Made by a program: the position numbers and the translations under genes. A stretch of 64,000 nucleotides of DNA, from positions 224,001 to 288,000 of the forward strand of contig CAVUQO010000002.1 in NCBI GenBank assembly GCA_963743635.1, in the 5' to 3' direction. The notes under the pieces are model-generated. The model was not told the origin of the DNA and did not search any database. It saw only the letters and a list, made by a program, of their open reading frames with translations. This DNA comes from Candidatus Babeliales bacterium (GTDB lineage Bacteria; Babelota; Babeliae; Babelales; Vermiphilaceae). Positions 20,504-56,123 of the stretch are shown piece by piece; position 1 is the first letter of the stretch; every line of letters begins with the position of its first letter.

Positions 20504-20586
20504 CCGGTCATTTCTGTCCCCGGTCATCCTAAGTTAATCGAAGGACGAAGAAAACTTTCAGCTGACGATGATTGAAAAATGAATGG
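20504..20586 (-). repeat. tRNA-3'-associated palindromic element, family A, copy 1 (83 bp)
   Basis: Starts at the CCA of tRNA-Ser(TGA): CCATTCATTTTTCAATCATCGTCAGCTG... Confidence 0.85.
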
Positions 20587-20675
20587 AGGAGAGAGAGGGA
20601 TTCGAACCCCCGATCCCGATCTCTCGAGATAACGGTTTTCAAGACCGCCGCATTCAACCGCTCTGCCATCTCTCC
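20584..20675 (-). tRNA. tRNA-Ser(TGA)
   Basis: GGAGAGATGGCAGAGCGG...CT-TGA-AA, long variable arm, TTCGAATC, CCA. Confidence 0.95.
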
Positions 20676-20730
20676 GAACCTATTGGAATGCTATATATTG
20701 TACGTTTTCTTAAAAAAAAATCAAATAATA

Positions 20731-21258
20731 CTATGCTTCAGCATATTCTTTGATTCGCTGAATCAATTGTGAGGTCGAAATACCTTTGGTATAGGGTACC
20801 GTCCTGAATATATTGAGAGAAATTGGGACTTCATAATAATAGGCCATTTTCTCCTCCTCAAAGTCACCGCCGTGGACGACGATATCTATGGAATGCTCAT
20901 CTAACCACTCTTGAGTTATTTTTGAGGGGGCATTGGGCAATACTTCATCGACGTATCTGCAAGCTTGAACCGATTTCATCCGTTCTTCCATGGTTAAAAT
21001 TGGCTTGCGCTTATAGGTTTTAATATCTTTATCTGAACAAACACCCACGACAAGTTGATCACCTAGCTGTTTTGCTTGTCTGAGAAATTCTACATGCCCA
21101 TAGTGAAATAGATCTGCAATGATATCGACGTAAACCCGAACTGGCTTATTTTTACGTGATAGATGCGCAGCGCTATTATGCTTTACGTAGTGCTGAACCA
21201 CGAGCGTACCAAAAAGAAGTGTTAAAACGGTTGGTATATACCAGGCGCCTCGTTCCAT
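20731..21258 (-). CDS. Cytidylyltransferase (ethanolamine/choline-phosphate CT-like) with N-terminal TM
   Basis: DLFHYGH, ER..SV.ACRYVDEV, DIVVHGGD, YTKGISTS. Confidence 0.85.
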   Translation of the reverse strand: MERGAWYIPTVLTLLFGTLVVQHYVKHNSAAHLSRKNKPVRVYVDIIADLFHYGHVEFLRQAKQLGDQLVVGVCSDKDIKTYKRKPILTMEERMKSVQACRYVDEVLPNAPSKITQEWLDEHSIDIVVHGGDFEEEKMAYYYEVPISLNIFRTVPYTKGISTSQLIQRIKEYAEA

Positions 21259-21456
21259 TGATGACCTTTAGAATGCGATGAATTTTATCATCGAACGGTA
21301 TGATTTTTTAAGCTTTTTGTCAAACTTTTATGCGCTCGCAGAGGAGCCATATGAAAAAATTCGGGTAGGATTGGGAGTTTTTGGAAAGAGAAGAGTTTTA
21401 GAATGAATACCTATGGTGGCCATAGGTTTTACGAGTAATGATTTTTAAAGGGCTGA

Positions 21457-21539
21457 CTTGCCATTTTTCAATCCTCGTCAGCTGAAAGCTTTCTTCGTCC
21501 TTCGATTAACTCAGGATGACCGGGGATAAAAATGAATGG
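21457..21539 (+). repeat. tRNA-3'-associated element, family A, copy 2 (inverted relative to its tRNA)
   Basis: CATTTTTCAATCCTCGTCAGCTG...GATAAAAATGAATGG, ends at the CCA of tRNA-Arg. Confidence 0.85.
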
Positions 21540-21613
21540 TGCGCCTAAGAGGAATTGAACCTCTAACCTTCAGATTCGTAGTCTGACGCTCTATCCAATT
21601 GAGCTATAGGCGC
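21537..21613 (-). tRNA. tRNA-Arg(ACG)
   Basis: GCGCCTATAGCTCAATTGGATAGAGC..CT-ACG-AA..CCA. Confidence 0.95.
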
Positions 21614-21728
21614 ATTAAATATCAATTTTCTATAGTATACGTAGCTTTTGAGTAATGCTCAAGCTTGTCTATTTCATTTTCCTTACTTGGAACTTATTTT
21701 GCTTTGTGAGCAAGATGGTTACAAGGAG

Positions 21729-21863
21729 GTCCGTCTACGCCTTCGGCTTCTTCGGACAGTCTTCGCTTTATCCTTTTTTGCTATTAATGTAACAATCATT
21801 AAAAAAGGTGGCGAAGCCAGACGAAGCTTGCCGAGCCTGAAGGCCCGGATAAGCGAAGACTGG
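21729..21863 (-). repeat. tRNA-3'-associated element, family B, copy 1
   Basis: CCAGTCTTCGCT...AGCTTCGTCTGG..GCCA...AGCGAAGACTGTCCGA...GCGTAGACGGAC; homologous to 56271-56418. Confidence 0.8.
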
Positions 21864-21951
21864 TGGAGAGAGAGGGATTCGAACCCTCGTGCCCGGTTTC
21901 CCAGACTCTTGCTTAGCAGGCAAGCGCTTTAGTCCACTCAGCCATCTCTCC
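21861..21951 (-). tRNA. tRNA-Ser(GCT)
   Basis: GGAGAGATGGCTGAGTGG..CT-GCT-AA, long variable arm, CCA. Confidence 0.95.
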
Positions 21952-22115
21952 GACAAAAATTTTATAGAATTAAGTGTTAGAACACTCGCTTTTAAAGGAT
22001 AAAGTATTTAGTAGTTTATGCAAGTGTAAGTATAGTATATCTTGTTGTAAAATGCATTGGGAGAGGGGTTATTGTAGTAACATCATGCTTCAATCGGTCG
22101 TACAAGGAATAATAA

Positions 22116-22400
22116 ATGCTTATTATAGAGGTAAAAGTGGTCCCTAGCTCAGGTAAGTCTGAATGCAAATTGGATAAGTCGGGGCGCTTGAAATGCTACC
22201 TCAAAAGCCCCCCAGAGCGCAATGAGGCCAATAATGAGTTAGTGAAATTGTTTGCCAAAGCCTTAAAGCTTACTCAAAACGAGGTCGAGATTGTCTCGGG
22301 AATGACGAGTCGAACCAAGAAATTGAAAATTTTAAAATCTATCACTGAAGATGAGTTATTAGCGCATTTAGGAATTCAACGTCAATTAACAGTGTGGTAA
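22116..22400 (+). CDS. DUF167/YggU family protein
   Basis: V.V.P, PP....AN.EL...AK, IVSG.TSR.K. Confidence 0.85.
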   Translation: MLIIEVKVVPSSGKSECKLDKSGRLKCYLKSPPERNEANNELVKLFAKALKLTQNEVEIVSGMTSRTKKLKILKSITEDELLAHLGIQRQLTVW

Positions 22401-22410
22401 ATGCGGGAAG

Positions 22411-23613
22411 GTGTATATGCCTTATTTTCGTTGGAAAGGAATTGATCTGCAGGGAACGGAGCGGGCGGGCCGTTCATGCGCAGCATCATTGGAAGATCTT
22501 GATACGCAGTTAATGCATCAAAATGTTGCATTGCTCAACAGCAAGCAGCTTTCGAGCCGCTTATTTGAGCGCCCAGTCAGCATGGACGTGAAGATTCAAT
22601 TCTTCAAAAGCTTGGCTACACTCCTTGAAGCCGGGGTTATGCTTCCTGAGGCGCTTGCCTTGGTGGCAGAGCAAGTCCGGCATATTGAATTTCATGAGGC
22701 TCTATACGCAATTAAACGTCAGGTAGAAACCGGCATCACTTTGAGTGATGCGATGGCAAAACATCGCCATATTTTCAATCCACTCATGATTGAAATGGTT
22801 GGAATTGGTTATGAGACCGGCGGTTTGGCAGTATCCTTGGAACGCCTGGTTTCCTATCTTGAAACAATGCAGGACTTTAGAAAAAAAATTCGCATGGCAT
22901 TGACCATGCCGCTCATCACATTTTTATTCTTCGTTGTTATTGCAATAGTACTCGTGATCTGCGTGGTGCCGCAATTTGAATCATTTTTCGCTTCACTCAA
23001 ACAGCCCCTGCCGACCAGTACACGCATTGTTTTACAGGTGAGTGCCTTTATACGTTCTTATGGCATACCTCTGTTGGGGCTTATTGGCATATCTATTGGT
23101 ACATGCGTTTGTTTGTATCGCGTCAATATGCAGGCACGCTATTGTTTTGATCGCCTGATGTTAGCAATACCATTTTTCGGACCATTAATGCTGACCCGGA
23201 TGTGTGCGCAGATCTCGCAAGCGCTGGCACTGCTTCTTGAGGGAGGCATAACGGTAGTGCATGCACTTTCGATCATAACCTCGCTCGTTGATAATATGGT
23301 GCTGCGCGATGTCTTGATTCGCGTGAAGCATGATGTTGAGGCAGGAATGCAGGTGAGCGACGCATTGACGCGCCAAGGAAATAGCTACCTTGGTTCGGAC
23401 GCCATTGCGTTAATACGGGTTGGTGAAACGTCTGCAACCTTGGGGCCAATGTTTGCTGCCGCCGCTCGACGTTACCAGGAATCAGTGACCTACACCTTGC
23501 AATGGCTTTTAAATCTCATGCAGCCATTGGTGGTTGTATTATTGGGCATTCTGATCACTGGCCTCATTATGGCAATTTATCTGCCAATAATGACGATTTC
23601 TTGGGGAATATAA
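22411..23613 (+). CDS. pilC: Type II secretion/type IV pilus platform protein (GspF/PilC)
   Basis: Two T2SSF domains (LATLLEAGV.L.EAL; G.ETG.L), three TM segments, AIYLPI. Confidence 0.9.
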   Translation: MYMPYFRWKGIDLQGTERAGRSCAASLEDLDTQLMHQNVALLNSKQLSSRLFERPVSMDVKIQFFKSLATLLEAGVMLPEALALVAEQVRHIEFHEALYAIKRQVETGITLSDAMAKHRHIFNPLMIEMVGIGYETGGLAVSLERLVSYLETMQDFRKKIRMALTMPLITFLFFVVIAIVLVICVVPQFESFFASLKQPLPTSTRIVLQVSAFIRSYGIPLLGLIGISIGTCVCLYRVNMQARYCFDRLMLAIPFFGPLMLTRMCAQISQALALLLEGGITVVHALSIITSLVDNMVLRDVLIRVKHDVEAGMQVSDALTRQGNSYLGSDAIALIRVGETSATLGPMFAAAARRYQESVTYTLQWLLNLMQPLVVVLLGILITGLIMAIYLPIMTISWGI

Positions 23614-23693
23614 TTATATTCATCGATTGACGTTTTAGGCAGTTTCAAGTACGCTATAATCCTATTCTTTAGAGATCTTTAGATCAATTTATA

Positions 23694-23780
23694 GCCGGGG
23701 TGGCGAAATTGGTAGACGCACGGGACTCAAAATCCCGCGGTAGTAATACTGTATCGGTTCGAGTCCGATCCCCGGCACCA
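23694..23780 (+). tRNA. tRNA-Leu(CAA)
   Basis: GCCGGGGTGGCGAAATTGGTAGACGC..CT-CAA-AA..CCA. Confidence 0.95.
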
Positions 23781-23838
23781 TTCATTTTTCAATCCTCGTG
23801 AGTTGAGGACTTTCTTCGCAGCCGATAAAAATGAATGG
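23778..23838 (+). repeat. tRNA-3'-associated element, family A, copy 3 (61 bp)
   Basis: CCATTCATTTTT...AAAAATGAATGG perfect 12-bp terminal inverted repeat. Confidence 0.9.
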
Positions 23839-24011
23839 CAGGCCACCTTCGCTAAAGCTTGCTGCTTGGCTTCAATTTTCCTAAAATCATTAACGGCTGG
23901 TGCCTGCTTTTTCAATAAATTCCCATCTTCATAAATTTTTCACTCACATCTGCAAAAAAGCAGTATAATAACAATGTTGTTTTTATAACTCTCTTTTCGT
24001 GTAGGTGCGGT

Positions 24012-24344
24012 ATGACAGAACAAAATTGTGTCTTTTGTGGCATTATCAATAAAAAAATTCCAGCAACGGTTATTGTTGAGAATGATCATGTGATTGTCAT
24101 TAATGATATTCATCCTAAAGCACCAGTACATTATCTGGTTATTCCCAAAAAACATGTTTCCGATTTTATGACGCTCACCGATGATACTGTCTTGCAAGAT
24201 CTTAAAAAAATGATTCAAAAGATTGGTCTTTCATTGCCGGGTCAATCATTTCGGTTGCTCATGAATAATGGTGCGGGCGCTGGTCAGAGTGTATTTCATC
24301 TTCATTTTCATATGCTTGCGGGCAAAAATATGGGTGGATTCTAA
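24012..24344 (+). CDS. hinT: HIT family nucleotide-binding protein
   Basis: CVFC, DIHP.AP.H.LVIPKKH, GQSVFHLHFH. Confidence 0.92.
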   Translation: MTEQNCVFCGIINKKIPATVIVENDHVIVINDIHPKAPVHYLVIPKKHVSDFMTLTDDTVLQDLKKMIQKIGLSLPGQSFRLLMNNGAGAGQSVFHLHFHMLAGKNMGGF

Positions 24345-24437
24345 TTATTTTTCCTTTTTGTGATTCTTGTTGTTTTTATGTACCATTTCTTTCCAGACTT
24401 TGTGAGACTATTGTTCACTGGTCACTGGGGAGATATA

Positions 24438-25193
24438 ATGAAGCTGTTATTGCGAACTACGGGATTGTTACTGTTAAGTGTATGTTACCTTGAAGGCAGA
24501 GATATGATGATAATAGCCCATCGTGGAGCTTCAGGACGAGAACCAGAAAATACTATGCGTGCATTTGAGAAGGCTGTTGAATATCGTGCTGATATGATTG
24601 AGTTTGACGTGCATGCATGTGGATCGGGTGAGATAGTTATTATGCATGATGACACTCTCGAACGAACAACCAATGGCTATGGAGAGGTTGGCAAAACGCC
24701 ACTTGCTGGATTACAGCGGCTTGATGCAGGTCTTGGTGAGCCGATTCCAACATTGCAAAAAGTGTTGGATACTTTTCGTGGCATAATAAAACTTGATATT
24801 GAACTCAAAGGAAAACATACCGGAGAGCCAGTTGCGGATCTGCTCCATGAATATATTTACCATTATAAGTGGCCCGTTACAGATATTCTCGTAACCTCTT
24901 TTCTTCATGAAGAATTATTGAAATTGCATGCGATTATGCCAGTAGTTCGCTTGGGTAAGATCTTTGATGACGGCGAATCGATTGAATATGATGCAGCGCT
25001 TTTTTGTGTTATTGTAGTGCCCTATTCGGCACTTACCTCAGAGTTGGTGCAACATGCGCATGCCCGTGGGGTACAAGTTCTGGTCTATACGCTCAATGAA
25101 CGTGAGCAGATATTGCATGCGGTGCAGTGCCAAGTAGATGGTATTATTTCCGATAATCCTGATATTGCTCGATCGATATGCGTACAGCGCTGA
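24438..25193 (+). CDS. Glycerophosphodiester phosphodiesterase (signal peptide)
   Basis: IAHRGASG..PENT..AF, EFDV, HD..LERTT, DGIISDNP. Confidence 0.92.
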   Translation: MKLLLRTTGLLLLSVCYLEGRDMMIIAHRGASGREPENTMRAFEKAVEYRADMIEFDVHACGSGEIVIMHDDTLERTTNGYGEVGKTPLAGLQRLDAGLGEPIPTLQKVLDTFRGIIKLDIELKGKHTGEPVADLLHEYIYHYKWPVTDILVTSFLHEELLKLHAIMPVVRLGKIFDDGESIEYDAALFCVIVVPYSALTSELVQHAHARGVQVLVYTLNEREQILHAVQCQVDGIISDNPDIARSICVQR

Positions 25194-25215
25194 CTGCGCA
25201 TAAAAGAGTAGTTTT

Positions 25216-26118
25216 TCATTCTTGAATTACAGGAATTTCTTTTGTGATTGTTTTCAGCTCATCTTGATAAAAAAGCGCGAGGCCGATAAATACGATAATG
25301 CTTGATGCATAAAAAGGCCATGTCGTAGTTTCATTGAGCCACAGCCATCCATAAAACGCTGCAAAAAAGGGAGAAATAAAGCCTGCAAAGGACACAAAAG
25401 TTGCAGTATATTTTTTTAATAAATACGCATACAAATTCTGACAAATCAGGCTGCCAACAATAGTTACCAACACAAGTAATCCAAGAAAACGGGGAGTATC
25501 AGTAACTGGATACCAACCTTCAAAGAATGGCGCCGTGAGCAGCGCGCAAAATCCACCTCCAAACATGGAGATGCCGTTAATTATAATGGGGGAGTAATGG
25601 GTTTCTCGCACCAATTTGCGAATGATAATCAATGTATAACTATGGGCAACCACAGAGGCAAGGACCGCAATTTCCGGCCATAGGGTACTCGCTGCTGTTT
25701 CTGCGGACGATGAACTAATAAGAATGGGAAAGAAGCCTATAAAACCTATGATTAAGCCTATCCATTGTTTGCGCGTCATCACTTCATTGAGCATGAAATA
25801 AGAAAAGAGTGCAGAAGCAAAAGGCGATAGATTAAACATGAACATTGTTTTCGCAGACGGCAGGAACTGAAAACCCCAAAAGCGAATGATATACGTGAAA
25901 TAAATGCCAAAAAAAGTTATTTGGACAAACATCCAGAGATGTTCTTTTTTGATATGAAAGCTTTCCTGAGTACGAAAATATTGGTAGACCATCATTACAG
26001 CACCGGCAAGGCCAAAGCGAGCAGCAATATAAAAGATAGGTTTACAACATCCAAAGATAAGTTTTGTGAGCGTAAGGGTCAGAGCCCAAAGCGCATAGTG
26101 GATTATAATTAACAGCAT
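25216..26118 (-). CDS. DMT/EamA family transporter
   Basis: About 10 TM, two EamA repeats. Confidence 0.88.
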   Translation of the reverse strand: MLLIIIHYALWALTLTLTKLIFGCCKPIFYIAARFGLAGAVMMVYQYFRTQESFHIKKEHLWMFVQITFFGIYFTYIIRFWGFQFLPSAKTMFMFNLSPFASALFSYFMLNEVMTRKQWIGLIIGFIGFFPILISSSSAETAASTLWPEIAVLASVVAHSYTLIIIRKLVRETHYSPIIINGISMFGGGFCALLTAPFFEGWYPVTDTPRFLGLLVLVTIVGSLICQNLYAYLLKKYTATFVSFAGFISPFFAAFYGWLWLNETTTWPFYASSIIVFIGLALFYQDELKTITKEIPVIQE

Positions 26119-26189
26119 AGTGGTCTATCGCTTTTAAAAAAAGGGTGGCGGGCAGTGATGCGTTATAGATATAACAACGAGGCATTCTT

Positions 26190-27158
26190 TTATTCAAGTA
26201 TTTCTGGAATTTCTTGTTTTATTGATTCCATTTCATCTTGATAGAAGAGTAAAAGTCCAATAAAAACAATGACGCTTGATACATAAAAATGCGGCGTTAT
26301 CTTTTCACTCAGCCATAACCAGCCATACAATGCTGCAAATAAGGGAGACATAAAGCCCGCAAAGGAAAGAAATGTGGCGGTGTACACTTTAAGCAGATAA
26401 GCATACAAATTGTGGCAAATAAGATTGCTAATTAAAATGACGCACGCCAACAATTTGGCAAATTCTAAAAAGTTGGTGACGGGACTGAGGCCTTCATAGT
26501 AAGGAGATGTGATGAGTGCGCATATGCCGCCAACAAACATAGTAAGTCCATTGATCATAGCAGGTGAATAGCTGTTATCACGTACGAGCTTACGAATAAC
26601 AATCCAATTATAACTATGACTTATTACCGAAGCGAGTACTGCAAGTTCTGGCCATGGAATACCGAATTGTGTTGGGGTAATGCCTTCAGTAATTTTTGGC
26701 GTGGTGGTCAACAGATTCCAGAATGCATTTAAAGCAGCAATTGGTGATAAAGGGCTTATTAAAATAGGAATGAATCCTATGACGCCAATACATAGACCAA
26801 GCCATTTTTTGCGCGACATTTCTTCATTTAAAAATATGTATGAAAAGAGAGCTGATAAAAAAGGTGCTAAGTTGAACATAAACATTGCTTTTGAAGCGGG
26901 CAAATATTTGAGTCCCCAAAATCGAATGATGTAGGTAAAATATATGCCAAAAAATACTACCTGCGCGTAAAGCCAGAAATGTTCTCGCTTGAAATGAAAA
27001 TCTTTACGCGCATAAATATATTGATAAGCCAAAAGCAGCATGCCTGCGAGAGACATGCGGGCACCGATATAAAAAATAGGTGCGGTGAAATCGAACATCT
27101 TTTTGCTGATTACAACGGAAAGCGCAAACAGTGCGTAAAGAATTATAATTAATATCAT
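26190..27158 (-). CDS. DMT/EamA family transporter (tandem paralog)
   Basis: Shares FFGIYFTYIIRFWG, MFMFNL.PF.SALFSY and FYQDE with its neighbour. Confidence 0.88.
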   Translation of the reverse strand: MILIIILYALFALSVVISKKMFDFTAPIFYIGARMSLAGMLLLAYQYIYARKDFHFKREHFWLYAQVVFFGIYFTYIIRFWGLKYLPASKAMFMFNLAPFLSALFSYIFLNEEMSRKKWLGLCIGVIGFIPILISPLSPIAALNAFWNLLTTTPKITEGITPTQFGIPWPELAVLASVISHSYNWIVIRKLVRDNSYSPAMINGLTMFVGGICALITSPYYEGLSPVTNFLEFAKLLACVILISNLICHNLYAYLLKVYTATFLSFAGFMSPLFAALYGWLWLSEKITPHFYVSSVIVFIGLLLFYQDEMESIKQEIPEILE

Positions 27159-27252
27159 AGGATTATCATTTAAATGAGTGGTACATATACTGAAAACTTA
27201 GTGTACCACATTATTGTGCTCAAAGTAGTATAATTATGTAGAGATCGGCTTT

Positions 27253-28320
27253 TTATGCTGTAGTAGTCTGGTTATTGGGTAGAATTTTTCCTGCAAAATT
27301 TCGTACCGCATTTCTATATTCATGTTTTTTAATCAAAAGATTATTGGCATGGCGTGAACCTTGAAAAATAACGAGCTCGTCCTGGCCGTTATTATGGTTT
27401 TCTTTTAGTGTCTGAATGTTCGTAAGCGGCGCATATTGATCACTCTCTTCATGTATATAGAGTATCGGTGTATCTTTCAGTATCTGAATTTTATCATCAA
27501 CACGAGAGACATGATCATGTTCCTGAATACCCCCCTTGACCAGTCCGATAGCAAGGCTCGTGAGTGGATAGCCAACCGAATTCCAAATGATTTTGTGTAA
27601 AAGGCGGTTTGATACTGCTGCGGTTCTATCGTTGCAGAAGATCCAACTGCGTAATATTTGAGAGAGCAACACATGCTTAAAGTGATAGTAACCAGCCGGC
27701 ACCACCTGCATACTTGAAGTGAATGCACTATCAAGAATGATTCCTTTAACGTTATACTTCTCTAATTCATTCTTTTTTTGGAGTTCACACAGTGCTCGCA
27801 GCGTATGAAAACCACCAGCACATAAGCCGAGCGTGATGAGCGGTTTCGTATTATCTTTGTTGTGCGCATAATCCATAGCGCCAATGACGTCTTTATAATG
27901 ATGCTTGCCATAGCGTCGCAGCTTAGCTACAAAGCTCAGGAGAGCGTTATTCTCACCTTGCCTGCGTGCATCAAAAAAAAGAATATTACTTTCATCGGGA
28001 AGGAGTTTTACGAGCGTTGACATTCCTTCCTTATTATTGGGAAAAAATCCGCCGGAGACAATGGTAGTATGAGTTGCGTTAGTTCTCGGGACCCAGATTC
28101 CATGAATATTAAAGTTATCCTGTGTGGTGAAGATAATTGATTCGGCGTTGTAATATTTTTTTAGATGCTCTCTGACACCGCTCTGATTTTTCAAAAGATT
28201 ATTGGTATCAAAAAGGGGATCATCATCAAGATTTGTGCTCGGGGCAGGTAATTCTGGCAATGAAAAGGCGGGGGCAGAACTTAAGAGTAATAATGGGATC
28301 AGGAGGGTGCGTATCATCAT
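27253..28320 (-). CDS. Secreted alpha/beta-hydrolase-fold protein
   Basis: FTTQD...IHG.W, FDARRQGE, GLCAGG at nucleophile elbow, LDSAF, D and H catalytic-position motifs. Confidence 0.65.
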   Translation of the reverse strand: MMIRTLLIPLLLLSSAPAFSLPELPAPSTNLDDDPLFDTNNLLKNQSGVREHLKKYYNAESIIFTTQDNFNIHGIWVPRTNATHTTIVSGGFFPNNKEGMSTLVKLLPDESNILFFDARRQGENNALLSFVAKLRRYGKHHYKDVIGAMDYAHNKDNTKPLITLGLCAGGFHTLRALCELQKKNELEKYNVKGIILDSAFTSSMQVVPAGYYHFKHVLLSQILRSWIFCNDRTAAVSNRLLHKIIWNSVGYPLTSLAIGLVKGGIQEHDHVSRVDDKIQILKDTPILYIHEESDQYAPLTNIQTLKENHNNGQDELVIFQGSRHANNLLIKKHEYRNAVRNFAGKILPNNQTTTA

Positions 28321-28404
28321 ATTAATTCCAAGGAATGGACTAGTTTTAGATATTGTCGGCGTCTAGTCTATGATATTGCATTATTAATGCAAAAAATTGT
28401 CACA

Positions 28405-28435
28405 AAAAAGGGGACCAATGTGGTCCCCTTTTTTT
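28405..28435. terminator. Intrinsic terminator
   Basis: AAAAAGGGGACCA-atg-TGGTCCCCTTTTTTT. Confidence 0.8.
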
Positions 28436-28451
28436 GTAATTCCTGTGATTT

Positions 28452-28976
28452 TTATTGGTAGAATCCTGACAAATTCTTACCTGCATCTTGTACTTTTACT
28501 TCTGGAAGTACTTTTGTCATTACGTTTCCATTATTATTCACCGCATACCATACCGTTAATCTGGTATTAGCTGAGTGAGGCTTGAAGATGTGATAATAAT
28601 AATTTCCTGGAGCAACTTGGATCTCTGATACCATTTGACCTGGTACATTTGCCGCTACCATGATTTTCTCTTTAGTGTCTAAGTTGGGCGCTGCCGCTTC
28701 TTGCTTTGAATTATTTGCAAGAGTGATGTTTGTTTGTTTAGTTGAGCTCATCATGCCACTCTTAAATGCCGGTATACTGATGAATACAGAGTTTTTGGTT
28801 TTTTCGTTATTCCAAAAATGGAATTTATTTTTATTCTTTTTATCAGCAATCCAAGTCTTAGCGTCGTTGACTTCTTGTGCTGATAACGCGGCAGGTTCAC
28901 TAGTTGGCTTAGCGGCATGCAGTGCGATTGTGCTCACGATGAGTGATACCGCTAATAGTACTTTATTGGTTTTCAT
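28452..28976 (-). CDS. Secreted hypothetical protein
   Basis: AAGGAG RBS; signal peptide ...STIALHA-AKP. Confidence 0.7.
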   Translation of the reverse strand: MKTNKVLLAVSLIVSTIALHAAKPTSEPAALSAQEVNDAKTWIADKKNKNKFHFWNNEKTKNSVFISIPAFKSGMMSSTKQTNITLANNSKQEAAAPNLDTKEKIMVAANVPGQMVSEIQVAPGNYYYHIFKPHSANTRLTVWYAVNNNGNVMTKVLPEVKVQDAGKNLSGFYQ

Positions 28977-46257: not shown

Positions 46258-46264
46258 GGCATAT

Positions 46265-47615: not shown

Positions 47616-48192
47616 GGATTTGAAACTCGGGGTGTTTATCAATACTATAACAATTTCTACAGCGTGCTTGGTATGCTTCTTGCGTGCCGATCATAATAAT
47701 AGGATCTTGATATTGGGCAGGTTTGCCATTCACTAACCGTTGAGTATAGTGCGCATCTTGGCCACATGCAGGCAGATTGCACGTAATTTGGTAATTTCAT
47801 CGGCAATAGCAAGCAAGATGGGCATGGGACCAAAAGGTTCGCCACGAAAATTAAGATCAAGCCCAGCCACAATAATGCGTTTTCCTTTATTGATGAGTTC
47901 GCAGATCGTATGAATGATTGTGCGCGGAAAAAATTGGATTTCATCAATGCCCATTACTTCAATATGATGCCATGCAAGTTCAAAAATGATCTGTTCATTA
48001 TCTACCGCATGAGCATCAATTTTACTGCCATCGTGGGAATAAACGTATTCGACTAGCGGTTCGACTATCGAACTGTGTTTAAAGGCAACAACTTGTTTTT
48101 GCAATTTTTGCACGCCGCAATCTGCGAATGAGTTCTTCTGATTTGCCAGAAAACATGGGGCCGCAAATAACCTCTAAACGTCCATGATCCAT
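47612..48192 (-). CDS. tdk: Thymidine kinase, cytoplasmic (frameshifted in assembly)
   Basis: [45 protein letters not shown]. Confidence 0.88.
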
Positions 48193-48289
48193 TGAATATA
48201 CTCCTGGTATGACCTTACTATGAGATGACGATATAATCTAGTATACTGTGGGGGGTTAAAAAGTGAAAATGATCATTGGAGATTGCACT

Positions 48290-48757
<468 letters not shown>

Positions 48758-48914
48758 CGGGGAGGCAGTAAAAATCCTATAATGGGCAAAAGGGCGTGAT
48801 ATTGGGATGATTTAGAGGCCGCAGAGAAGAATGGTCTGCTCAAGAGGTCTATTTGGAAGGGAAATTAGTTAAAACAGCCGTTTTGGCTGTTTTAAGGGCC
48901 CCTTTAGTTTCTAC

Positions 48915-48943
48915 TTGAAATAATATTAAAGTTCTGTTATAAT
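48915..48943 (+). promoter_or_regulatory. Sigma70 promoter of the RBR ligase gene
   Basis: TTGAAA-N17-TATAAT with extended -10 TG. Confidence 0.65.
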
Positions 48944-49005
48944 GGTATCTAGGAAGAGAAAAAAGTGATTTTTACTCTTATTATTAACCAAAAAAGGGAG
49001 ATATC

Positions 49006-50301
49006 ATGAAATTTATAACACAATTAGTATTAGTATCAATGGTCCTTACTGGCCAATCGATATCCGCTATGAGCGCAAAAGCACTGGCGGCTTATAGAGA
49101 GCGTGAAATGGCAGGAAGAACAGAGCAAGCCTCTGCAGCTTCAAGCAGCTCATCATCGTCCTCATCAGCGAGCAGTCAATCATCAGAAGGGGAAGCGCGT
49201 AGACCTAAAGGAAAACGAGCTTTAACGCGTCAAGAATTGACACAGATGGAACAACAAGAAAAAGCAGCCATAGAGGCACTAAAATTGGCAGAAAAAGCAG
49301 CGTATGAAGCAGAGGATAAAGCAAGAGAAGAAGCAAAAAAACTCGAAGCATTAGCTGCAGAATTGGCACAAGAAGAGTGGAATTTGGAAAGGCAAGCTGC
49401 AGAGAAACTTGCAAAGCAAGATGAAGAATTAGCGAAACAATTGCAAAAACAAGCAAGTATTGAAGCAAAAGAAGAAGAATTGAATACTCTTAAACAGCAG
49501 CAGCAGATTGCAGAAAAAGATGCGCTGTTAGCGAAGCAATTGGCAGAGCAGGTAGAGGCAGAAGCGCAAGAGCTTAAGCAGCGAATTGCCGAAGATGAAG
49601 AACTAGCGAGAAAATTAGCTGAAGAAAGTGGCCCTTCTGGTCAGTCGAGTGCGAGTAGTTCTTCACAAGCGGCCGAGCTCCAGCAGTGCGGCATTTGTAT
49701 GGAAGACGTTGAGCCGCAGAATATGGTAAATCTTGCATGTCAGCATGCCTATTGCCGTGGATGTTTGACTCAGCTTGTTGAAACCGGTCTTAAGGAAAAA
49801 AATATTGAAGGTATTAAGTGCCCAACGTCTGAATGTAATGCTCCAATGACCCGGGCAGATATTTTTGATATTACGCAAAATCCTGCAAAAGTTGAGGAAT
49901 ATAATGCTATCGCTACCGAGACAGCCCTACCTAAGCTGCAAGGTATCAGGCAGTGTCCTACGGCGAACTGTCCATACCAATTTTTAAATGAAGCAGATGA
50001 GACTCAGGAAACGCGGTGTCCTATGTGCACAAAGCGCTATTGCGCAAACTGCTTAAAAGAGCACAGTGCTCGCATGTCGTGCGAACAAGCGGCAGCTGAC
50101 GCGGCAATGACCTCAGATGATCGGGAGCGGGCAACGGAAGAATGGAAAAAAACACACACAAAGCCATGTCCGAAATGTAACGTTTCAATTGAGAAAGATG
50201 CAGGATGTAATCATATGAGATGCATAACTCCTAGCTGCAGCCACCAGTTTTGTTGGGTGTGTAAACAGCCATGGAACGCAGACCATTACCGCTGTCAGTG
50301 A
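49006..50301 (+). CDS. Secreted RBR (RING1-IBR-RING2) E3 ubiquitin ligase-like effector
   Basis: Signal peptide; CGIC..ACQHAYCRGC..CPTSEC; CPTANC..CPMC..YCANC..H..C; CPKC..IEKDAGCNHMRC..C.HQFCWVC. Confidence 0.92.
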   Translation: MKFITQLVLVSMVLTGQSISAMSAKALAAYREREMAGRTEQASAASSSSSSSSSASSQSSEGEARRPKGKRALTRQELTQMEQQEKAAIEALKLAEKAAYEAEDKAREEAKKLEALAAELAQEEWNLERQAAEKLAKQDEELAKQLQKQASIEAKEEELNTLKQQQQIAEKDALLAKQLAEQVEAEAQELKQRIAEDEELARKLAEESGPSGQSSASSSSQAAELQQCGICMEDVEPQNMVNLACQHAYCRGCLTQLVETGLKEKNIEGIKCPTSECNAPMTRADIFDITQNPAKVEEYNAIATETALPKLQGIRQCPTANCPYQFLNEADETQETRCPMCTKRYCANCLKEHSARMSCEQAAADAAMTSDDRERATEEWKKTHTKPCPKCNVSIEKDAGCNHMRCITPSCSHQFCWVCKQPWNADHYRCQ

Positions 50302-50482
50302 CCGTTATAATTATAGGTATAAATCTGTGCCCCCTTGTTTCTGACTAGAAAATAAGGGGGCTACTATTTCTAGATGGGCAGCAAAAATCCTAAAAAAGTG
50401 TATACTGATAAGGATTTTGATAAATACCTATGCCTGGCCTGATACCTAAAAAGCCATGGCTTTCAGTGATGTGGAATGATTT

Positions 50483-51228
50483 ATGAAAAAAATAATACAA
50501 AAACCAGCATTGGTGACCTTAAATACTTATCTTGCTCATGCGGGCGTTTGTTCTCGTCGAAAAGCGGCTGAATTGGTTGAATCGGGCGTCGTGCGCGTCA
50601 ACCAGCAGGTTGTGGCTGATCCCGGCTATCGGGTAAAACCAGATGATATCGTGGAAGTCTCGGGAAGAAACATTACTCCTGAAGATCACGTCTATGTTTT
50701 GCTTAATAAGCCAAAAGATTATGTAACGACCGTTTCAGATGAGCGTGGCCGTAAAACAGTCATGGACTTAGTTCGCGGTGCTGGGCACGTTCGGCTGTAT
50801 CCCATTGGGCGCCTTGATCGGATTACAACCGGATTATTGCTCATGACCAATGATGGTGCATTTGCAGAAAAATTGGCCCATCCTCGCTATGAAGTAGAAA
50901 AAGTATACACGGTGACGCTTGATAAGAGCGTGAGCTCTGGTGATATACAGACGATTATGCGTGGAATTCAGCTTGAAGATGGATTGATTAAGGTGGATGA
51001 TATAGCGTATACGGGGACCACCAAAAGAGAGGTTACCTTAGCGCTTCACAGCGGAAAATATCGGGTTGTGCGTAGAATATTTGAACAACTTGGGTATGAT
51101 GTGCGTAAGCTTGACCGTATAGAATATGCAGGGTTAACCAAAAAAGAGTACCGGTTGGTATGTGGCGTTACCTGACGGATGGCGAAGTTGCCGCACTAAA
51201 AAGAATGAAAAATGAGGAAAAGGAATAA
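50483..51228 (+). CDS. rluB: 23S rRNA pseudouridine synthase (RluB/RsuA family; frameshift near the end)
   Basis: S4 domain GVCSRRKA, GRLD.ITTGLLLMTNDG. Confidence 0.9.
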
Positions 51229-51230
51229 TC

Positions 51231-52015
51231 ATGGATTATGGAACGATTGTTCGTATTGGTATTTTGGTCGCAATGGGCGTAGTTGGCATTTCTGCCATGA
51301 AACGCGTCTTAACCAGAGCTCTCGAGCGATGGTACAATGATCCAGTTCGCATACCGATTATGGTACGATTGTTGACCTATTTAGCGGTATTTATTGTCGG
51401 TGCCTCAATTATGCAAGAATTGGGCATTAATATTACTGCATTGTTGGGTGCTGCAGGGATCTTGGGTGTGGCCATTGGTTTTGCCGCACAAGCGAGCGTC
51501 AGTAATATCATCAGTGGTATATTTATCCTGATCGAACGTCCGTTCTCAATAGATGATGAAATTCAAATTGATGAGTTCAGTGGAAAAGTGGTAGACATCA
51601 ATCTATTTTCTATCGGATTGCTGACTCCCGATCATCGTTCTATTCGTATTCCGCACGAAAAATTATTGAAAAACGTTATCATCAATAAAACTCATCGCGC
51701 AAAGCGCCGTTACGAAGTCACTATTGCATTAGCATCGTATGAAGATCTTGATCGTGCACGTGCAGTGTTTGTGGATGCTATGCGTAATGAATCGTATTGC
51801 CTAATCTCACCTGAGCCAATTGTGTGGGTGGATACAATCAATGGCGATGTAACGCAATTGATCGTTGGTGTTTGGGTTGATAGCAGCAAATTGGTTGAAG
51901 CAAAACACCGTCTTGTTGGCGCGTTATATCCCGCGTGTAAAAAAGAAAATATACATCTCATCAACCATCTACGATGTCGATACAAGTCACGCAGAAGTAA
52001 TTTCAACAATGATGT
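51231..52015 (+). CDS. mscS: Small-conductance mechanosensitive channel (end approximate)
   Basis: LGAAGILGVAIGFAAQ..VSNIISG..ILIERPF. Confidence 0.88.
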
Positions 52016-52100
52016 GAGTTTTTGTAGGCAACGTCTGGATCTTATGATACGCTCCTTGCATAAATTATGTAAAAATTATCTATGCGTAGCAGGTATTCGT

Positions 52101-53433
52101 ATGTCAAATGCTCATCTCGTCATTGAACAATCGTGGGGTCTTTCAGGAGAATTGGAATTGGTTGGCGCAAAAAATGCGGTGCTGGTCATTATGGCAGCAT
52201 TAATTTTGACGCGCGGCAAGTCAGTTCTAAAAAATGTTCCGGCATCATCTGATGTCGATCAAATGATTTTAGTGCTCGAAGAATTGGGCGCTCAGGTTAC
52301 GTTCTGTCGCAAAGAACATCGTCTTGAAGTTGATACAACGTTCCATCTCAAAATACAGCGTCAGTCCTGAAATCATGCGCAAGATGCGGGCATCCATTTT
52401 AGTAATGGGGCCGTTACTTGCACGCTTTGGTAAAGCAGATATTGCATTGCCGGGCGGTTGCGTCATTGGCGCGCGTCCCGTTGATTATCACATCAAAAAT
52501 TTTGAACAAATGGGCGTCATGGTTGAAATGCATGGTGACTACTTAAAAGCAGTAGCGCCAGTTTTGCAGGCAACCACGTTAGTGCTCGATTATCCAAGCG
52601 TTGGTGCAACTGAAAATATTATGATGGCTGCAGCGCTGACGCCGGGCGTAACGCGCATTATTAATGCCGCATTAGAGCCGGAAGTGTTGGATTGCATTGA
52701 AGTGCTGCGTAAAATGGGTGCAGATATTGCGATTTTACCGCCAGCAACGCTTGAAATTAGAGGCGTGAGCTCGCTAAAACCCATTGAGCATGCGATTGTC
52801 TATGATCGTTTAGAAGCGGGCGCATTATTGCTAGCTGCGGCGATTACGGGCGGAAATATTTCATTGCCACAAGCGCCAGCATACACGATGGATATTGTGA
52901 TTAAGAAATTACGAGATATGGGGCATATTCTGAACGTGGGTGCAGATGGGGTCGGAATTACCTTACACGCAACGCAAACGCCGCGCGCCGTATCATTCAA
53001 GACTGGTCCATATCCGAGCTTTCCGACCGATTTACAAGCGCCTATGATGGCAGCGCAATGTATTGCCAATGGCACGAGTATGGTCGAAGAGACGGTTTTT
53101 GAAAATCGTTTGGTGCATGTGCGTGAATTGCAAAAAATGGGTGCGCAGATTACCGTTGAGCACAATAAAGCAACGGTAATGGGTGTTGAGGAATTGTATG
53201 GAACGCAGATCATTGCAACCGATATTCGCTCTTCATGCGCATTAGTTCTTGCGGGATTAGTGGCAAAAGGAGCAACGCATATGACCGGCATTCATCATTG
53301 GCAACGAGGTTATGAAATGCTTGAGCGTAAACTTGCTCATTTGGGTGCGCGTATTGCGCTTAAAGAATTCGAGCCAGCTCGCGTTGAGTTTGACGAAACT
53401 CTTGATAAGAAATGGCACGAAGTACAATCGTAG
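52101..53433 (+). CDS. murA: UDP-N-acetylglucosamine 1-carboxyvinyltransferase (frameshift near 52350)
   Basis: GAKNA, MRAS, LPGGCVIGARP, SVGATEN, FPTDLQ, FENR. Confidence 0.95.
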
Positions 53434-53564
53434 TTCGATGCGCTTCGCTACTCACCATGAACGGATTATTCTGAGTTTGACGAAGGAGCCATCACGACTG
53501 CGGCTATGTCAGACGTAGCTCCAGAAAGAAAGGAGCGAAGAGTGAATAAACGAAGTCGGAAGGG
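53434..53564. repeat. REP-like element between convergent murA and atpG
   Basis: TTCGATGCGCTTCGCTACT matches the reverse complement of 682-700 with one mismatch; ends GGG-TTA at the atpG stop. Confidence 0.65.
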
Positions 53565-54413
53565 TTAGAACCCACCCGTGAGTTCGGTAAGTTCTTTGGT
53601 AATTTTTGCCTGACGCACTTTATTGTAGTGCAATTTATTCACTTCAAGTAAATTCTCAGCGCTGCGTGTTGAATTATCCATGGATAAAAAGCGCGCAGCT
53701 TGTTCTGCAAGTAATGAATGAAAGAGGAGCATATGTACCGTTGCTTGTAAGCATTGGCGCGTAATGTCATCAAGTAGTTCGCTCGGAGATTCTTCCCATC
53801 GATATTCAATTCTTTCCAGCGTGCTGTGATCTCGGGTGCCCGGATCGAATGGAATGAGGCGCGTTATGTGCGGTTGTTGTACGAAAAAACTTCTAAATTT
53901 ATTACTGACGACGGTCACGTGCGTATAGGGTACTGGCATAGAGATCAGGTCTTGCACGATCGCTTCTGCAGTCAGTGCAATGGTGCTCATGGTCAGCGGA
54001 GAATAGATTTTAATGATTTTGCCAAAAGGCATGTCCTGTGTGTAATCAACCGTTTTTTTACCGACTATCATGACATCAGGCGTTTTGGTATAAGTACGAA
54101 GAGTGGCGCGCAGGAATTGAAAGAGCATAGTATTAAAGCTACCGCAAAGACCTTTTTCTGATCCCATGATGATGATAAGAGGTCGAGACTCCAGGTCTGC
54201 TTTTGGATTGAAATAGGGATGGTGCCAAACAGGAACTTCTTTTTTAATCATATGAAAGAGGGTATTGAGCGTTGTGGTGTACTGAGAAAGTGCAACTTCT
54301 TTATTTTTAAGGCGTGCATGGGTCGAGATAGAGATAAGTCGCATCGCGTGAGTAATTTTCTTAATTGTCTCGATCGCTTTTATTCGCTGTTTGAGCTGAG
54401 TCAATTGAGCCAT
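53565..54413 (-). CDS. atpG: ATP synthase F1 gamma subunit
   Basis: KKITHAMRLIS, KGLCGSFN, EQAARF.SMD, YNKVRQAKITKELTE. Confidence 0.95.
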   Translation of the reverse strand: MAQLTQLKQRIKAIETIKKITHAMRLISISTHARLKNKEVALSQYTTTLNTLFHMIKKEVPVWHHPYFNPKADLESRPLIIIMGSEKGLCGSFNTMLFQFLRATLRTYTKTPDVMIVGKKTVDYTQDMPFGKIIKIYSPLTMSTIALTAEAIVQDLISMPVPYTHVTVVSNKFRSFFVQQPHITRLIPFDPGTRDHSTLERIEYRWEESPSELLDDITRQCLQATVHMLLFHSLLAEQAARFLSMDNSTRSAENLLEVNKLHYNKVRQAKITKELTELTGGF

Positions 54414-54504
54414 ATATGCGCCTTATATAAAATTATGGTAGGATACGTACCTTAATTACATATGGTATCGCTAACAAACTGTTTTTTCAATGGTGAGGGT
54501 ATGT

Positions 54505-55086
54505 ATGATTTTAATAATCGATGGTTATAATATTTTAAAGCGCCAGCATGTGGTCCGTTTTGTGGATGAGGCGGTACGCAAGCGATTCATACAAGGAGTT
54601 GCTGCATACGCGCGTCATAGTGGTAATAAAGTTCTCGTGGTGTTTGATGGTGGCCCGCAGGACGATGCTTATGAAGAATATGGGCGTGGCGTGCAGGTTG
54701 TCTATTCGGGTACGCGAGAAACGGCTGACGATTATATTAAACGCTATGTGAAAAGGCATAGTAATAAAGATCTTATGCTCGTGACCTCTGATCGCGAACT
54801 GAATAGTATTGCAGATCGTTATGCAGTTCCTTCGCTTGATGCGCATGAATTTGTGCGGGTTTTGATGTATAGTGAGCATGAGCGTTCGACGGGAAGTTCT
54901 TCAAAACATGCGCCAATTATAAAAATGAGCACTGAAGAAATACCAGAATTGGATGAATTGATGGAGCAAGCGAGTAAAGCCGTACCACAAAAAACTGATG
55001 ATCTGATGTTGAAAAATCGAAAAAGCGCCGCGCAAAAAATGTCAAAAAAAGAGCGCGAGTTGCTTAAAAAAGTAAAAAAATTATAG
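54505..55086 (+). CDS. NYN/YacP-like RNase domain protein
   Basis: IIDGYN, VVFDG, ETADDYI, VTSDREL. Confidence 0.88.
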   Translation: MILIIDGYNILKRQHVVRFVDEAVRKRFIQGVAAYARHSGNKVLVVFDGGPQDDAYEEYGRGVQVVYSGTRETADDYIKRYVKRHSNKDLMLVTSDRELNSIADRYAVPSLDAHEFVRVLMYSEHERSTGSSSKHAPIIKMSTEEIPELDELMEQASKAVPQKTDDLMLKNRKSAAQKMSKKERELLKKVKKL

Positions 55087-55092
55087 GGGCTT

Positions 55093-55524
55093 ATGGCAAA
55101 CCACCAATTAATATATACACTTGATCAGCTTGATAATGCGGTTAAACTGGTCAAAGAGCGGATGAATTCATGTCAGGTTGTGACTTTTACGGGGAATTTG
55201 GGTGCGGGAAAAACGACTCTCATCCGAGCCCTCTTACGAGATTTAGGGGTTTCGCAACCCATTACAAGTCCAACCTTTACGTATATGAATCGGTATAAGA
55301 CGGCGGATGGCAAGATTATCTACCATTTTGATTTATACCGTTTAAACAGCCTGGATGAGTTTATAGAGCAGGGATTTCATGAATACCTGTACCAACCTGA
55401 AAGTTGGTGCCTGGTTGAGTGGCCGGCGATTATTATGCCTCTTTTGACCCATGATGTATGCCATATAACCCTCGATTATGAGAACGACGCTCGCTGTATG
55501 CGCTGGAAAATGAATAAGGAATAA
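55093..55524 (+). CDS. tsaE: tRNA t6A biosynthesis ATPase TsaE
   Basis: GNLGAGKTT, TSPTF, YHFDLYRL, VEW. Confidence 0.95.
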   Translation: MANHQLIYTLDQLDNAVKLVKERMNSCQVVTFTGNLGAGKTTLIRALLRDLGVSQPITSPTFTYMNRYKTADGKIIYHFDLYRLNSLDEFIEQGFHEYLYQPESWCLVEWPAIIMPLLTHDVCHITLDYENDARCMRWKMNKE

Positions 55525-55528
55525 CAAT

Positions 55529-55738
55529 ATGCAAGATGATGGAAGTCCGTTGCTCCAAAGGCCAGATTATTTGGTTTGCACCTGTATGGGGGTCATGTAC
55601 TCGGATATCTGTGATGCCATAAAAGGTGGCGTACAGACATTTGATGAACTTTATGATACGTTAGGTGTGGGGACTGGGTGTTCAAGTTGTGTGAGCGAAG
55701 TGCATGAAATATTGGCAGAACAACTTAAAAAAAAATAA
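55529..55738 (+). CDS. BFD-like (2Fe-2S) ferredoxin
   Basis: VCTCMGV...GVGTGCSSC. Confidence 0.85.
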   Translation: MQDDGSPLLQRPDYLVCTCMGVMYSDICDAIKGGVQTFDELYDTLGVGTGCSSCVSEVHEILAEQLKKK

Positions 55739-55898
55739 TTTAAAAAACGCGATTATACACACTAGATCGACCTTTTGGTGTGTTTTGGGGTGAAAAAGAG
55801 GTGATAAACTCTTATTTTTTTGTAAAATTAAGTTGAAATCTCCTGAGAAAAACACTATCATATTCACGGTAATCGTGATTATAACAATATTTGAAATA

Positions 55899-55983
55899 GG
55901 CGAGATTCCCGAGCGGTCAAAGGGGACGGACTGTAAATCCGTTGGTTCTGCCTTCGCAGGTTCGAATCCTGCTCTCGCCACCA
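55899..55983 (+). tRNA. tRNA-Tyr(GTA)
   Basis: CT-GTA-AA, variable arm, CCA. Confidence 0.95.
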
Positions 55984-55989
55984 TAGGTT

Positions 55990-56065
55990 GCGGGAATAGC
56001 TCAATTGGTAGAGTGGCAGCCTTCCAAGCTGTAGGTTGCGGGTTCGAGTCCCGTTTCCCGCTCCA
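55990..56065 (+). tRNA. tRNA-Gly(TCC)
   Basis: GCGGGAATAGCTCAAT..CT-TCC-AA..CCA. Confidence 0.95.
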
Positions 56066-56123
56066 TTCATTTTTCAATCCTCGTTAGCTGAGAGCTTTCT
56101 TTGCAGCGGATAAAAATGAATGG
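56063..56123 (+). repeat. tRNA-3'-associated element, family A, copy 4 (61 bp)
   Basis: CCATTCATTTTT...AAAAATGAATGG. Confidence 0.9.

Follow-up and report, generated by a model that had tools for sequence, protein, structure and literature searches.

The window analyzed here, a 64-kb stretch of DNA (positions 224001 to 288000 of contig C2), belongs to genome G000, a Babeliales assembly of 1.45 Mb in three contigs with a G+C content of about 42%, rated 85% complete. Its 11 tRNA genes, as called by ARAGORN, include four whose 3′ ends run directly into copies of one short palindromic element, here termed family A (Table 1). The first-pass annotation of the window had placed these copies against tRNA-Ser(TGA), -Arg(ACG), -Leu(CAA), and -Gly(TCC) and had each of them begin with the tRNA's own CCA; both observations were borne out, position for position, in all four. 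We describe the structure and distribution of the element, its relation to a palindromic module found behind tRNA genes across the order, and its possible link to a tiny GIY-YIG nuclease gene encoded in the same trailers.

Table 1. Family A copies in the 64-kb window, the tRNA genes on which they are anchored, and the adjoining GC palindromes (hairpin 2)
Feature	Position in window	Strand	Remarks
Family A copy 1	20504..20586	-	83 nt; interior "forward"; starts at the CCA of tRNA-Ser(TGA); distal arm decayed
tRNA-Ser(TGA)	20584..20675	-	CCA at 20584-20586 forms the first three bases of copy 1
Hairpin-2-like GC palindrome, CCGG-CA-CGCCAG type	20496..20507	-	directly distal to copy 1
Family A copy 2	21457..21539	-	83 nt; starts at the CCA of tRNA-Arg(ACG); interior inverted relative to the tRNA
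tRNA-Arg(ACG)	21537..21613	-	ARAGORN
tRNA-Leu(CAA)	23694..23780	+	ARAGORN
Family A copy 3, at tRNA-Leu(CAA)	23778..23838	+	61 nt; exact 12-bp arms
Hairpin 2, TGGC-AG-GCCA	23836..23845	+	shares TGG with the distal arm of copy 3
tRNA-Gly(TCC)	55990..56065	+	final gene of a Tyr-Gly pair; Tyr lies 6 nt upstream and has no module
Family A copy 4, at tRNA-Gly(TCC)	56063..56123	+	61 nt; exact 12-bp arms
Hairpin 2, AATGGC-TG-GCCATT	56119..56134	+	reaches into a run of four T

The 12-bp terminal inverted repeat that had been attributed to the element is exact in both arms of copies 3 and 4, but in copies 1 and 2 only the tRNA-side arm is exact, the far arm being decayed irrespective of the direction of the interior. 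There are six occurrences of the arm 12-mer CCATTCATTTTT in the window, whereas 0.06 would be expected from 100 shuffles, no single one of which gave six. Alignment of the two size classes upheld the description of the 83-nt form as the 61-nt form plus a 22-nt extra module, with a decayed distal repeat, and the nhmmer strand calls agreed that the interior of the Arg(ACG) copy is reversed relative to its tRNA. The 22-nt module (20520 to 20545 and 21496 to 21521) has the ends TCATCCTGAG ... TCGAAGGAC, and the same ends lie inside a palindrome trailing a tRNA-Met gene (tRNA at C2:417611-417684, palindrome onward from C2:417684); judged by eye, these shared ends indicate that the modules nest mosaically.

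With a hidden Markov model (HMM) built from nine copies and a threshold of E < 1e-6, family A amounts to 16 copies in G000, all of them intergenic. Scored genome-wide, 12 of the 16 overlap the CCA of a tRNA or transfer-messenger RNA (tmRNA) gene, which corresponds to 12 of the 31 CCA-ending genes among the 35 tRNA/tmRNA genes of the genome, and the anchoring first noticed in the window is thereby confirmed across G000. The interior runs forward in eight of these copies (tmRNA, Ser-TGA, Leu-CAA, Gly-TCC, Met-CAT, Val-TAC, Phe-GAA, and Gly-GCC) and is inverted in the other four (Arg-ACG, Asn-GTT, Lys-TTT, and Glu-TTC). In 14 of the 16 copies, inspected by eye, the distal arm is succeeded by a small palindrome of the type TGGC-N2-3-GCC, which lies away from the tRNA in either orientation of the interior; it has a GC stem of 4 to 6 bp and is followed by four T residues after copy 4 and by seven after the Met copy. 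The Arg(TCG), Arg(CCT), Cys(GCA), and Gln(TTG) genes of G000 have no encoded CCA by ARAGORN coordinates, and no module is found at any of them.

The four copies not anchored on a CCA comprise one at C3:113754, 135 nt downstream of Gly-GCC, which is identical at 60 of 60 positions to the Gly-GCC copy although the flanks are unrelated; a truncated one at C3:526165, 286 nt downstream of Leu-TAA; one at C2:545664, 411 nt downstream of Pro-TGG; and one at C2:162274, which is preceded by the last 10 nt of tRNA-Arg(TCT) (C2:162335-162344), the intact gene lying 17.8 kb upstream on the same strand. The last of these, with its tRNA 3′-end fragment, might represent the far boundary of an old insertion. 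In tblastn, the best E value upstream of this copy was 0.32, and the idea of a decayed nuclease gene there was discarded, as was that of an integrase island between the copy and the intact tRNA gene, no PF00589 match being present in those 17.8 kb, which are themselves unannotated. Rfam searches (gathering thresholds and E values up to 0.1) of the four copies not placed at a tRNA end and of nine comparable sites in relatives returned tRNAs only.

Sequence comparison identifies family A as the local long-loop form of a trailer module of the Babeliales that is joined base for base to the CCA of tRNA and tmRNA genes. The module consists of a hairpin 1 with arms CCAKTCATTT / AAATGAMTGG, closed by CCA:TGG and taking its first three bases from the tRNA's own CCA, followed by a GC-rich hairpin 2, TGGC-NN-GCCA; family A is this same module with an insert of 37 nt in the hairpin-1 loop (59 nt in the 83-nt variant). 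For the TGG in the distal arm there are two possible partners, the CCA of the tRNA and a second CCA four bases downstream, in hairpin 2. The 12-bp repeat, previously taken for the element's own transposon end, is instead the stem of this order-wide frame, as is evident from the trailers of relatives and from the pattern scan reported below.

The BLAST search of the genome and its relatives that the first-pass annotation had proposed found the 61-mer to be nearly private, with G000 and one weak match in G002 as the only hits among 41 related genomes, and the family A HMM, run on all fetched loci, recognized only G000 and the tmRNA of G002. The latter genome belongs to another genus of the same family, and its trailers keep the frame with different contents: the tmRNA carries a family A homologue with an inverted interior, Arg-TCG and Arg-CCT a small hairpin whose ends are the same and whose loop is 5 nt, and Lys-TTT, Arg-ACG, and Leu-CAA a "B-type" palindrome ending in the same ...GACTGG-CAGG-CCA. 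The proximal hairpin of the B type is built on the same frame (CCAG...CTGG, then C-NNN-G-CCAG, then T). The window itself contains palindromes of about 105 nt that start from a tRNA CCA (family "B"), at approximately 21757 to 21863 on the minus strand behind Ser(GCT) and 56271 to 56365 on the plus strand behind Thr(TGT); their outer arms are of the CAGTCTTCGC/GCGAAGACTG type, with an inner CTGGC-NNN-GCCAG and a T run, and they stand behind at least six tRNAs genome-wide.

Across the order, the 13-mer GAMTGGCNGGCCA occurs 81 times in 42 of 151 genomes, against 8 occurrences of the reversed control, and at about half of 20 fetched sites it lies directly behind a tRNA. Hairpin 1 with a small loop (3 to 9 nt) was found in 15 of 120 relatives, from eight families, with no control matches. 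A scan with the 27-nt pattern CCAKKCATTTCNNNNNGAAATGMMTGG over 185,579 species, each represented by one genome, gave 76 matches in 70 loci (about one chance match expected by our estimate), nearly all in metagenome-assembled genomes of Dependentiae/Babeliales. Sixty-two of the matches start on the CCA of a called tRNA, a further five prove by eye to be tRNA ends that lie on the other strand or are cut by the end of the contig, and two stand behind tRNA-like 3′ ends; the last seven, with neither tRNA nor hairpin 2, come from records labelled Paenibacillus, Rickettsiales, Gammaproteobacteria, Chitinophagales, and Nitrosospira. One complete genome has 14 of its 15 matches at tRNAs. Of the 62 tRNA-linked small modules, 53 have a hairpin 2; in 25 of these, three or more consecutive T occur within 10 nt, and in 36 of them the base that precedes TGG pairs with the one that follows the second CCA. 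A stem mismatch in hairpin 1 is common to 42 of the 62 (GT..CC in 34 and GG..AC in 8), with the perfect GT..AC in 19. Reverse-complemented, the most frequent hairpin-2 string, TGGCAGGCC, gives the tRNA-Trp 3′ end GGCCTGCCA of G000, G002, and G102 (in the window, tRNA-Trp lies at 56848 to 56924); an origin of the string from this gene was considered and dropped, none of the 62 tRNA-linked small modules being located at a tRNA-Trp.

At Arg(ACG), the flip represents an in-place inversion. In contigs from two soil/peat metagenome runs, 21472 to 21532 lies on the opposite strand, bridged to flanks matching 20840 to 21351 (about 96% alike) and 21539 to 21838 (identical) by the joints 21351|21532 and 21472|21539; the evidence consists of contigs rather than reads, and both runs belong to one study. 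Since the interior is reversed between unchanged flanks in a near-identical strain, orientation is uninformative on insertion or mobility. The small modules present a similar picture, in that 45 of the 62 have a 5-nt loop whose reverse complement also occurs in the set (CTTCA in 17 and TGAAG in 7, TTGCA and TGCAA in 5 each, TTTCA and TGAAA in 3 each), and the common stem mismatch is likewise present in both orientations. With these observations, the earlier argument that the flip favors a mobile origin is withdrawn. The inverted-repeat arms would allow the hairpin-1 loop to invert without leaving its site. In chloroplast non-coding DNA, small hairpin loops between short inverted repeats invert in place, and both orientations are encountered among close relatives; the flip seen here is of the same kind, but loop inversions of this sort leave the anchoring and the spread of the modules unexplained.

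Evidence for mobility comes from turnover between relatives. In G002, the same tRNAs have other modules or none, the tmRNA alone carrying a family A homologue. In the genus g30, nine of whose 10 genomes were examined, the 3′ end of tRNA-Phe is the same throughout and the DNA trailing it varies: plain AT-rich sequence in G134, G147, and G049; a B-type palindrome in G093, G158, and G126; a hairpin-1 variant with hairpin 2 in G141; and hairpins 1 and 2 together with a nuclease gene in G066 and G029. The empty alleles sought are thus found in three of the nine genomes, and the pattern that had been named as arguing against recent mobility, identical presence at orthologous tRNAs, is not what is observed, occupancy differing both between sister genera and within g30. 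The differing modules at orthologous tRNAs, the variable tRNA-Phe trailer, and the identical pair of copies with unrelated flanks together support mobility. Apart from that pair, the forward copies are 83 to 93% identical to each other, and the tmRNA copy is the closest to the family A consensus (96.7%). These figures fit a burst of family A seeded from the tmRNA, the sole site shared with G002.

The only protein found in association with the module system is an SLX1-like GIY-YIG nuclease of about 80 amino acids encoded in the same trailers. The Pfam GIY-YIG domain (PF01541) is detected at six places in G000, including two genes designated type 1 (57.4 and 47.1 bits). One type-1 gene, of 82 codons (C2:545730-545975), comes after tRNA-Pro and a B-type module and has its stop codon 4 nt away from family A copy C2:545664; the other, of 92 codons, starts about 65 nt past the family A copy of tRNA-Glu(TTC). 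Homologues are present in 74 of 121 genomes of the order, with one to five per genome, many of them with in-frame stops. Gene context was examined for 32 genes at 30 loci from 29 relatives and G000; 25 of them lie 78 to 560 nt downstream of a same-strand tRNA or tmRNA gene, representing at least eleven tRNA species, and for these 25 genes the trailer between tRNA and gene opens with a CCA-anchored palindrome. The closest solved relatives are the SLX1 structure-specific endonucleases (E values of 5.7e-6 and weaker) and UPF0213 BH0048. The 340 relatives of about 80 amino acids are named in their sources only as "GIY-YIG nuclease family protein," and NCBIfam has no family for the three small GIY-YIG proteins submitted to it. 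An alignment of 19 sequences shows no variation at Y5, Y17, G19, R27, H31, N32, and E63, which include the catalytic Y, Y, R, and E. The protein amounts to the catalytic domain only and has no DNA-binding extension, longer forms not having been searched for. The first-pass annotation had envisaged a transposase or nuclease gene flanked by the ends of the element; a nuclease gene does lie in the same trailers, but neither a transposase (DDE families were not searched) nor, within 10 kb, a larger element sharing the arms was found.

Direct repeats that join the final 18 to 19 nt of the tRNA to the module bracket the nuclease gene at three loci (L151, L158, and L159). Their lengths are 96 nt (100% identity), 98 nt (about 95%), and 55 nt or more up to a masked stretch. 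At a fourth locus (L166), the repeated part is the tRNA's last 20 nt, and 11-bp inverted arms bracket the gene. The inserts between the direct repeats hold the 80-amino-acid nuclease gene only. Ahead of the distal repeat, L158 and L159 have GTTCGA and a hairpin of about 32 nt, which resemble an interrupted T loop. A palindrome behind tRNA-Ser(TGA) in G081 reaches into the tRNA-specific acceptor bases and is followed by a near copy of that 3′ end. It is the gene cassettes that are bracketed by tRNA 3′-end repeats in these four loci, not the family A copies themselves.

Three tandem long hairpins of about 100 nt, with ends CCAGTC...GACTGGCAGGC, occur at another locus (L060, G058:C1:723900-724800) ahead of a GIY-YIG gene whose reading frame extends into a GAAATGACTGGCCGGCCA motif. 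These units are a lineage-specific long-loop analogue of family A.

We tentatively interpret family A, giving this reading slightly less than an even chance, as modules without a gene that belong to a system driven by a nuclease and directed at tRNA 3′ ends, with the tiny SLX1-like nuclease as its autonomous member. The nuclease would nick or cut hairpin or cruciform DNA at the tRNA-trailer junction, repair would then use another trailer as the template for break-induced copying of a module, the gene being included or not, and loss of the gene would leave a solo module behind; modules so placed might also affect the pre-tRNA. Of the two earlier ideas, that of a non-autonomous element targeted to CCA ends is the better supported, by the occupancy differences and by the nuclease gene in the trailers, but no transposase was found (DDE families were not searched). 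A more far-reaching possibility, which we put somewhat below an even chance, is that the Babeliales harbor a new class of mobile element whose autonomous form would be the SLX1-like GIY-YIG gene of about 80 codons alone. Such an element would land behind tRNA and tmRNA genes, build or bring a palindrome from the tRNA's own CCA (sometimes including further acceptor bases), and duplicate the tRNA 3′ end so that the tRNA survives; loss of its gene would leave solo modules, and family A would be one such burst of footprints, probably seeded from the tmRNA.

Several observations weigh against a nuclease-driven origin. Nuclease genes adjoin only 2 of the 16 family A copies, and family A arms bracket neither of these genes. 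Seven of the 32 sampled genes have no tRNA within 800 nt, and the palindrome that precedes the gene at the other 25 is, by a rough pattern, of the B type in 18, of other types in 4, and of the hairpin-1 type in only 3, all from g30. All 15 genomes with the small hairpin 1 also carry the gene, compared to 73 of the 120 relatives overall, but the genomes are related and kinship inflates the link; 58 gene-positive genomes have no exact small hairpin 1. The reading does not account for the making of a repeat that holds tRNA-specific bases at different tRNAs. Furthermore, the distal-side position of hairpin 2, the conservation of the frame across families, and the restriction to stable-RNA genes would also fit a host function.

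Such a function forms the core of the main alternative, which we regard as less likely, namely, that the module is a selected pre-tRNA 3′ element, either a terminator or a processing site with the CCA in its stem, that is homogenized by gene conversion through the shared stems, the nuclease genes merely using the DNA downstream of tRNAs as a safe landing place. It accounts for the fixed polarity and the conserved frame: hairpin 2 and its T-rich run are distal in every interior orientation and, at the frequencies given above, recur in the small modules; the frame sequence is kept across at least eight families; the tmRNA bears family A in two genera; and in the tight Val-Asn-Asp cluster of G029 the module is on the last tRNA only, as it is in the Tyr-Gly pair of the window. 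G000 also encodes RNase E/G, PNPase, and RNase PH, whereas RNase Z and RNB-type enzymes were not found in this 85%-complete genome, and an endonucleolytic trailer signal would therefore be plausible. What the host-signal explanation does not account for are the empty tRNA-Phe trailers of g30, together with the many tRNAs of G000 and G002 that do without a module, and the canonical terminator used elsewhere, the 5S rRNA of the window ending in a GC stem with T8 (40093 to 40129), which means that the organism has ordinary terminators. The RNA folds are also weak. As predicted RNA, the 61-nt copies form a hairpin closed by the 12 bp (-17.7 and -21.6 kcal/mol; z, -1.6 and -2.6), but the 83-nt copies, with their decayed distal arm, do no better than shuffles (z, +0.6 and +0.1); for a trailer hairpin sequestering the CCA, the other possibility raised by the first-pass annotation, the predicted stability is modest. 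The recurrence of the same stem mismatch in most of the small hairpins also speaks against a host signal, and a stable stem starting from the CCA would probably hinder exonucleolytic trimming.

Two further explanations appear very improbable to us, each to a similar degree. In one, the copies are classical MITEs (miniature inverted-repeat transposable elements), i.e., deletion derivatives of a DNA transposon moved in trans by a transposase with a preference for post-CCA sites, for which the exact 12-bp arms, the small size, the number of copies, and the identical pair could be adduced. This reading is weakly refuted: there is no flanking target duplication, the left flank being the tRNA and the right flank hairpin 2 (TGGC-NN-GCC); the arms are common to gene-less hairpins across the order; and the Y1 transposase domain PF01797 has no match in G000 (85% complete; DDE families were not searched). 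A larger element with the same arms was sought within 10 kb and rejected, the arm pairs corresponding either to the 61-nt copies themselves (with one cross-pair between the adjacent C3 copies) or to chance; the three extra pairs are such chance matches, and the one inspected closely sits inside a coding frame. In the other, the copies are relics of integrase-mediated islands that mark attachment sites at tRNA 3′ ends. The direct repeats of tRNA 3′ ends around inserts in relatives and the tRNA-Arg(TCT) fragment found with a family A copy 17.8 kb downstream of the gene would agree with this, but none of the three tyrosine recombinase (PF00589) genes of the genome is near any copy, the inserts between the repeats contain no integrase, and 12 copies stand at intact tRNAs with no island.

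Comparison with known systems situates the proposed nuclease-driven modules among several kinds of elements. Repetitive extragenic palindromes (REPs) and their compound forms, BIMEs and REPINs, are short imperfect extragenic palindromes that occur in many copies, often mosaic or nested, hold no genes, and are tied to RAYT (Y1) transposases. The modules resemble them in being imperfect palindromes in many copies (16, all intergenic, for family A), in their mosaic nesting, and in their tie to one small nuclease-type gene family that persists alongside; unlike them, family A has no GTAG head, no Y1 gene was found in the genome, and the partner is an SLX1-like GIY-YIG gene. While REPs are scattered after mRNAs, family A holds one position, the base next to the discriminator on its 3′ side in tRNA and tmRNA genes. 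Bacterial MITEs such as Correia, RPE, and Nezha are small multicopy elements with inverted arms and a hairpin-forming transcript, all of which are also characteristics of family A; the latter differs from them in the absence of a target duplication, in having no cognate transposase among the families searched (DDE was not among them), in its single strict target, and in the order-wide occurrence of its arms. Integrative elements at tRNA genes have their parallel in the gene cassettes bracketed by tRNA 3′-end repeats (L151, L158, L159, and L166), but these have no integrase inside.

Phage T4 SegB is a free-standing GIY-YIG homing endonuclease encoded in the T4 tRNA gene cluster (PMC2330249). 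The genes considered here share with this type the position beside tRNAs, the differences in presence and absence, and the frequent decay. They also have two features of a GIY-YIG homing cassette, an intact predicted catalytic domain and polymorphism at the same site, the tRNA-Phe-associated gene being present in two of the nine g30 genomes. Relative to the SegB type, they are set apart by consisting of the catalytic domain alone in about 80 amino acids, by their location on bacterial chromosomes behind many different tRNAs, and by being accompanied by palindromic modules and a duplication of the tRNA 3′ end. The module system thus lacks defining features of REP/REPIN-RAYT systems, MITEs, and free-standing GIY-YIG homing endonucleases, the nearest known kinds. 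In intrinsic terminators, for their part, a U tract of about 7 to 9 nt comes immediately after a GC-rich stem (PMC3993855). Compared with this definition, hairpin 2 is similar in its short GC stem, in the T residues that often come after it, and in its siting at the ends of tRNA transcription units; it departs from it in that the T run reaches three or more in only 25 of 53 cases, and hairpin 1 or family A, AU-rich and with no U tract directly after, departs further. Searches of the literature outside subscription journals turned up neither CCA-anchored palindromes nor tiny GIY-YIG genes linked to tRNAs in Dependentiae.

If the link to the nuclease is true, the system would be about the smallest self-propagating bacterial DNA element known and a new, integrase-free use of tRNA genes as landing sites, with an 80-amino-acid structure-specific nuclease that has a defined natural substrate. 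It would also account for stray fragments consisting of a tRNA 3′ end plus a hairpin and for the hypervariable DNA behind tRNAs in obligate intracellular symbionts. Should the module be a host signal, it would constitute a lineage-wide pre-tRNA trailer signal that pairs with the CCA, making 3′ maturation testable in an uncultured phylum. Under either reading, annotation should mask the modules and anticipate pseudo-3′ ends.

A few minor observations were made in the course of the analysis. A single RNA run contained any of the stretch (share, 0.08), in the form of contigs, which reveal neither transcript starts nor ends; in it, position 23780 is joined to 23954 in a relative about 90% alike, which we do not count as evidence. 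The Rho RNA-binding domain of G000 is split over two adjacent frames (112 and 114 amino acids) at G000:C2:38985-39207, reflecting perhaps a frameshift or an error in sequencing, or else a broken rho gene. Finally, a second type of small GIY-YIG protein (100 to 107 amino acids) is encoded in three copies in G000, at C2:93375-93590, C3:642014-642229, and C3:289325-289540; at least two of these are bracketed by inverted repeats of about 45 bp, and this second type looks like a separate small mobile element.

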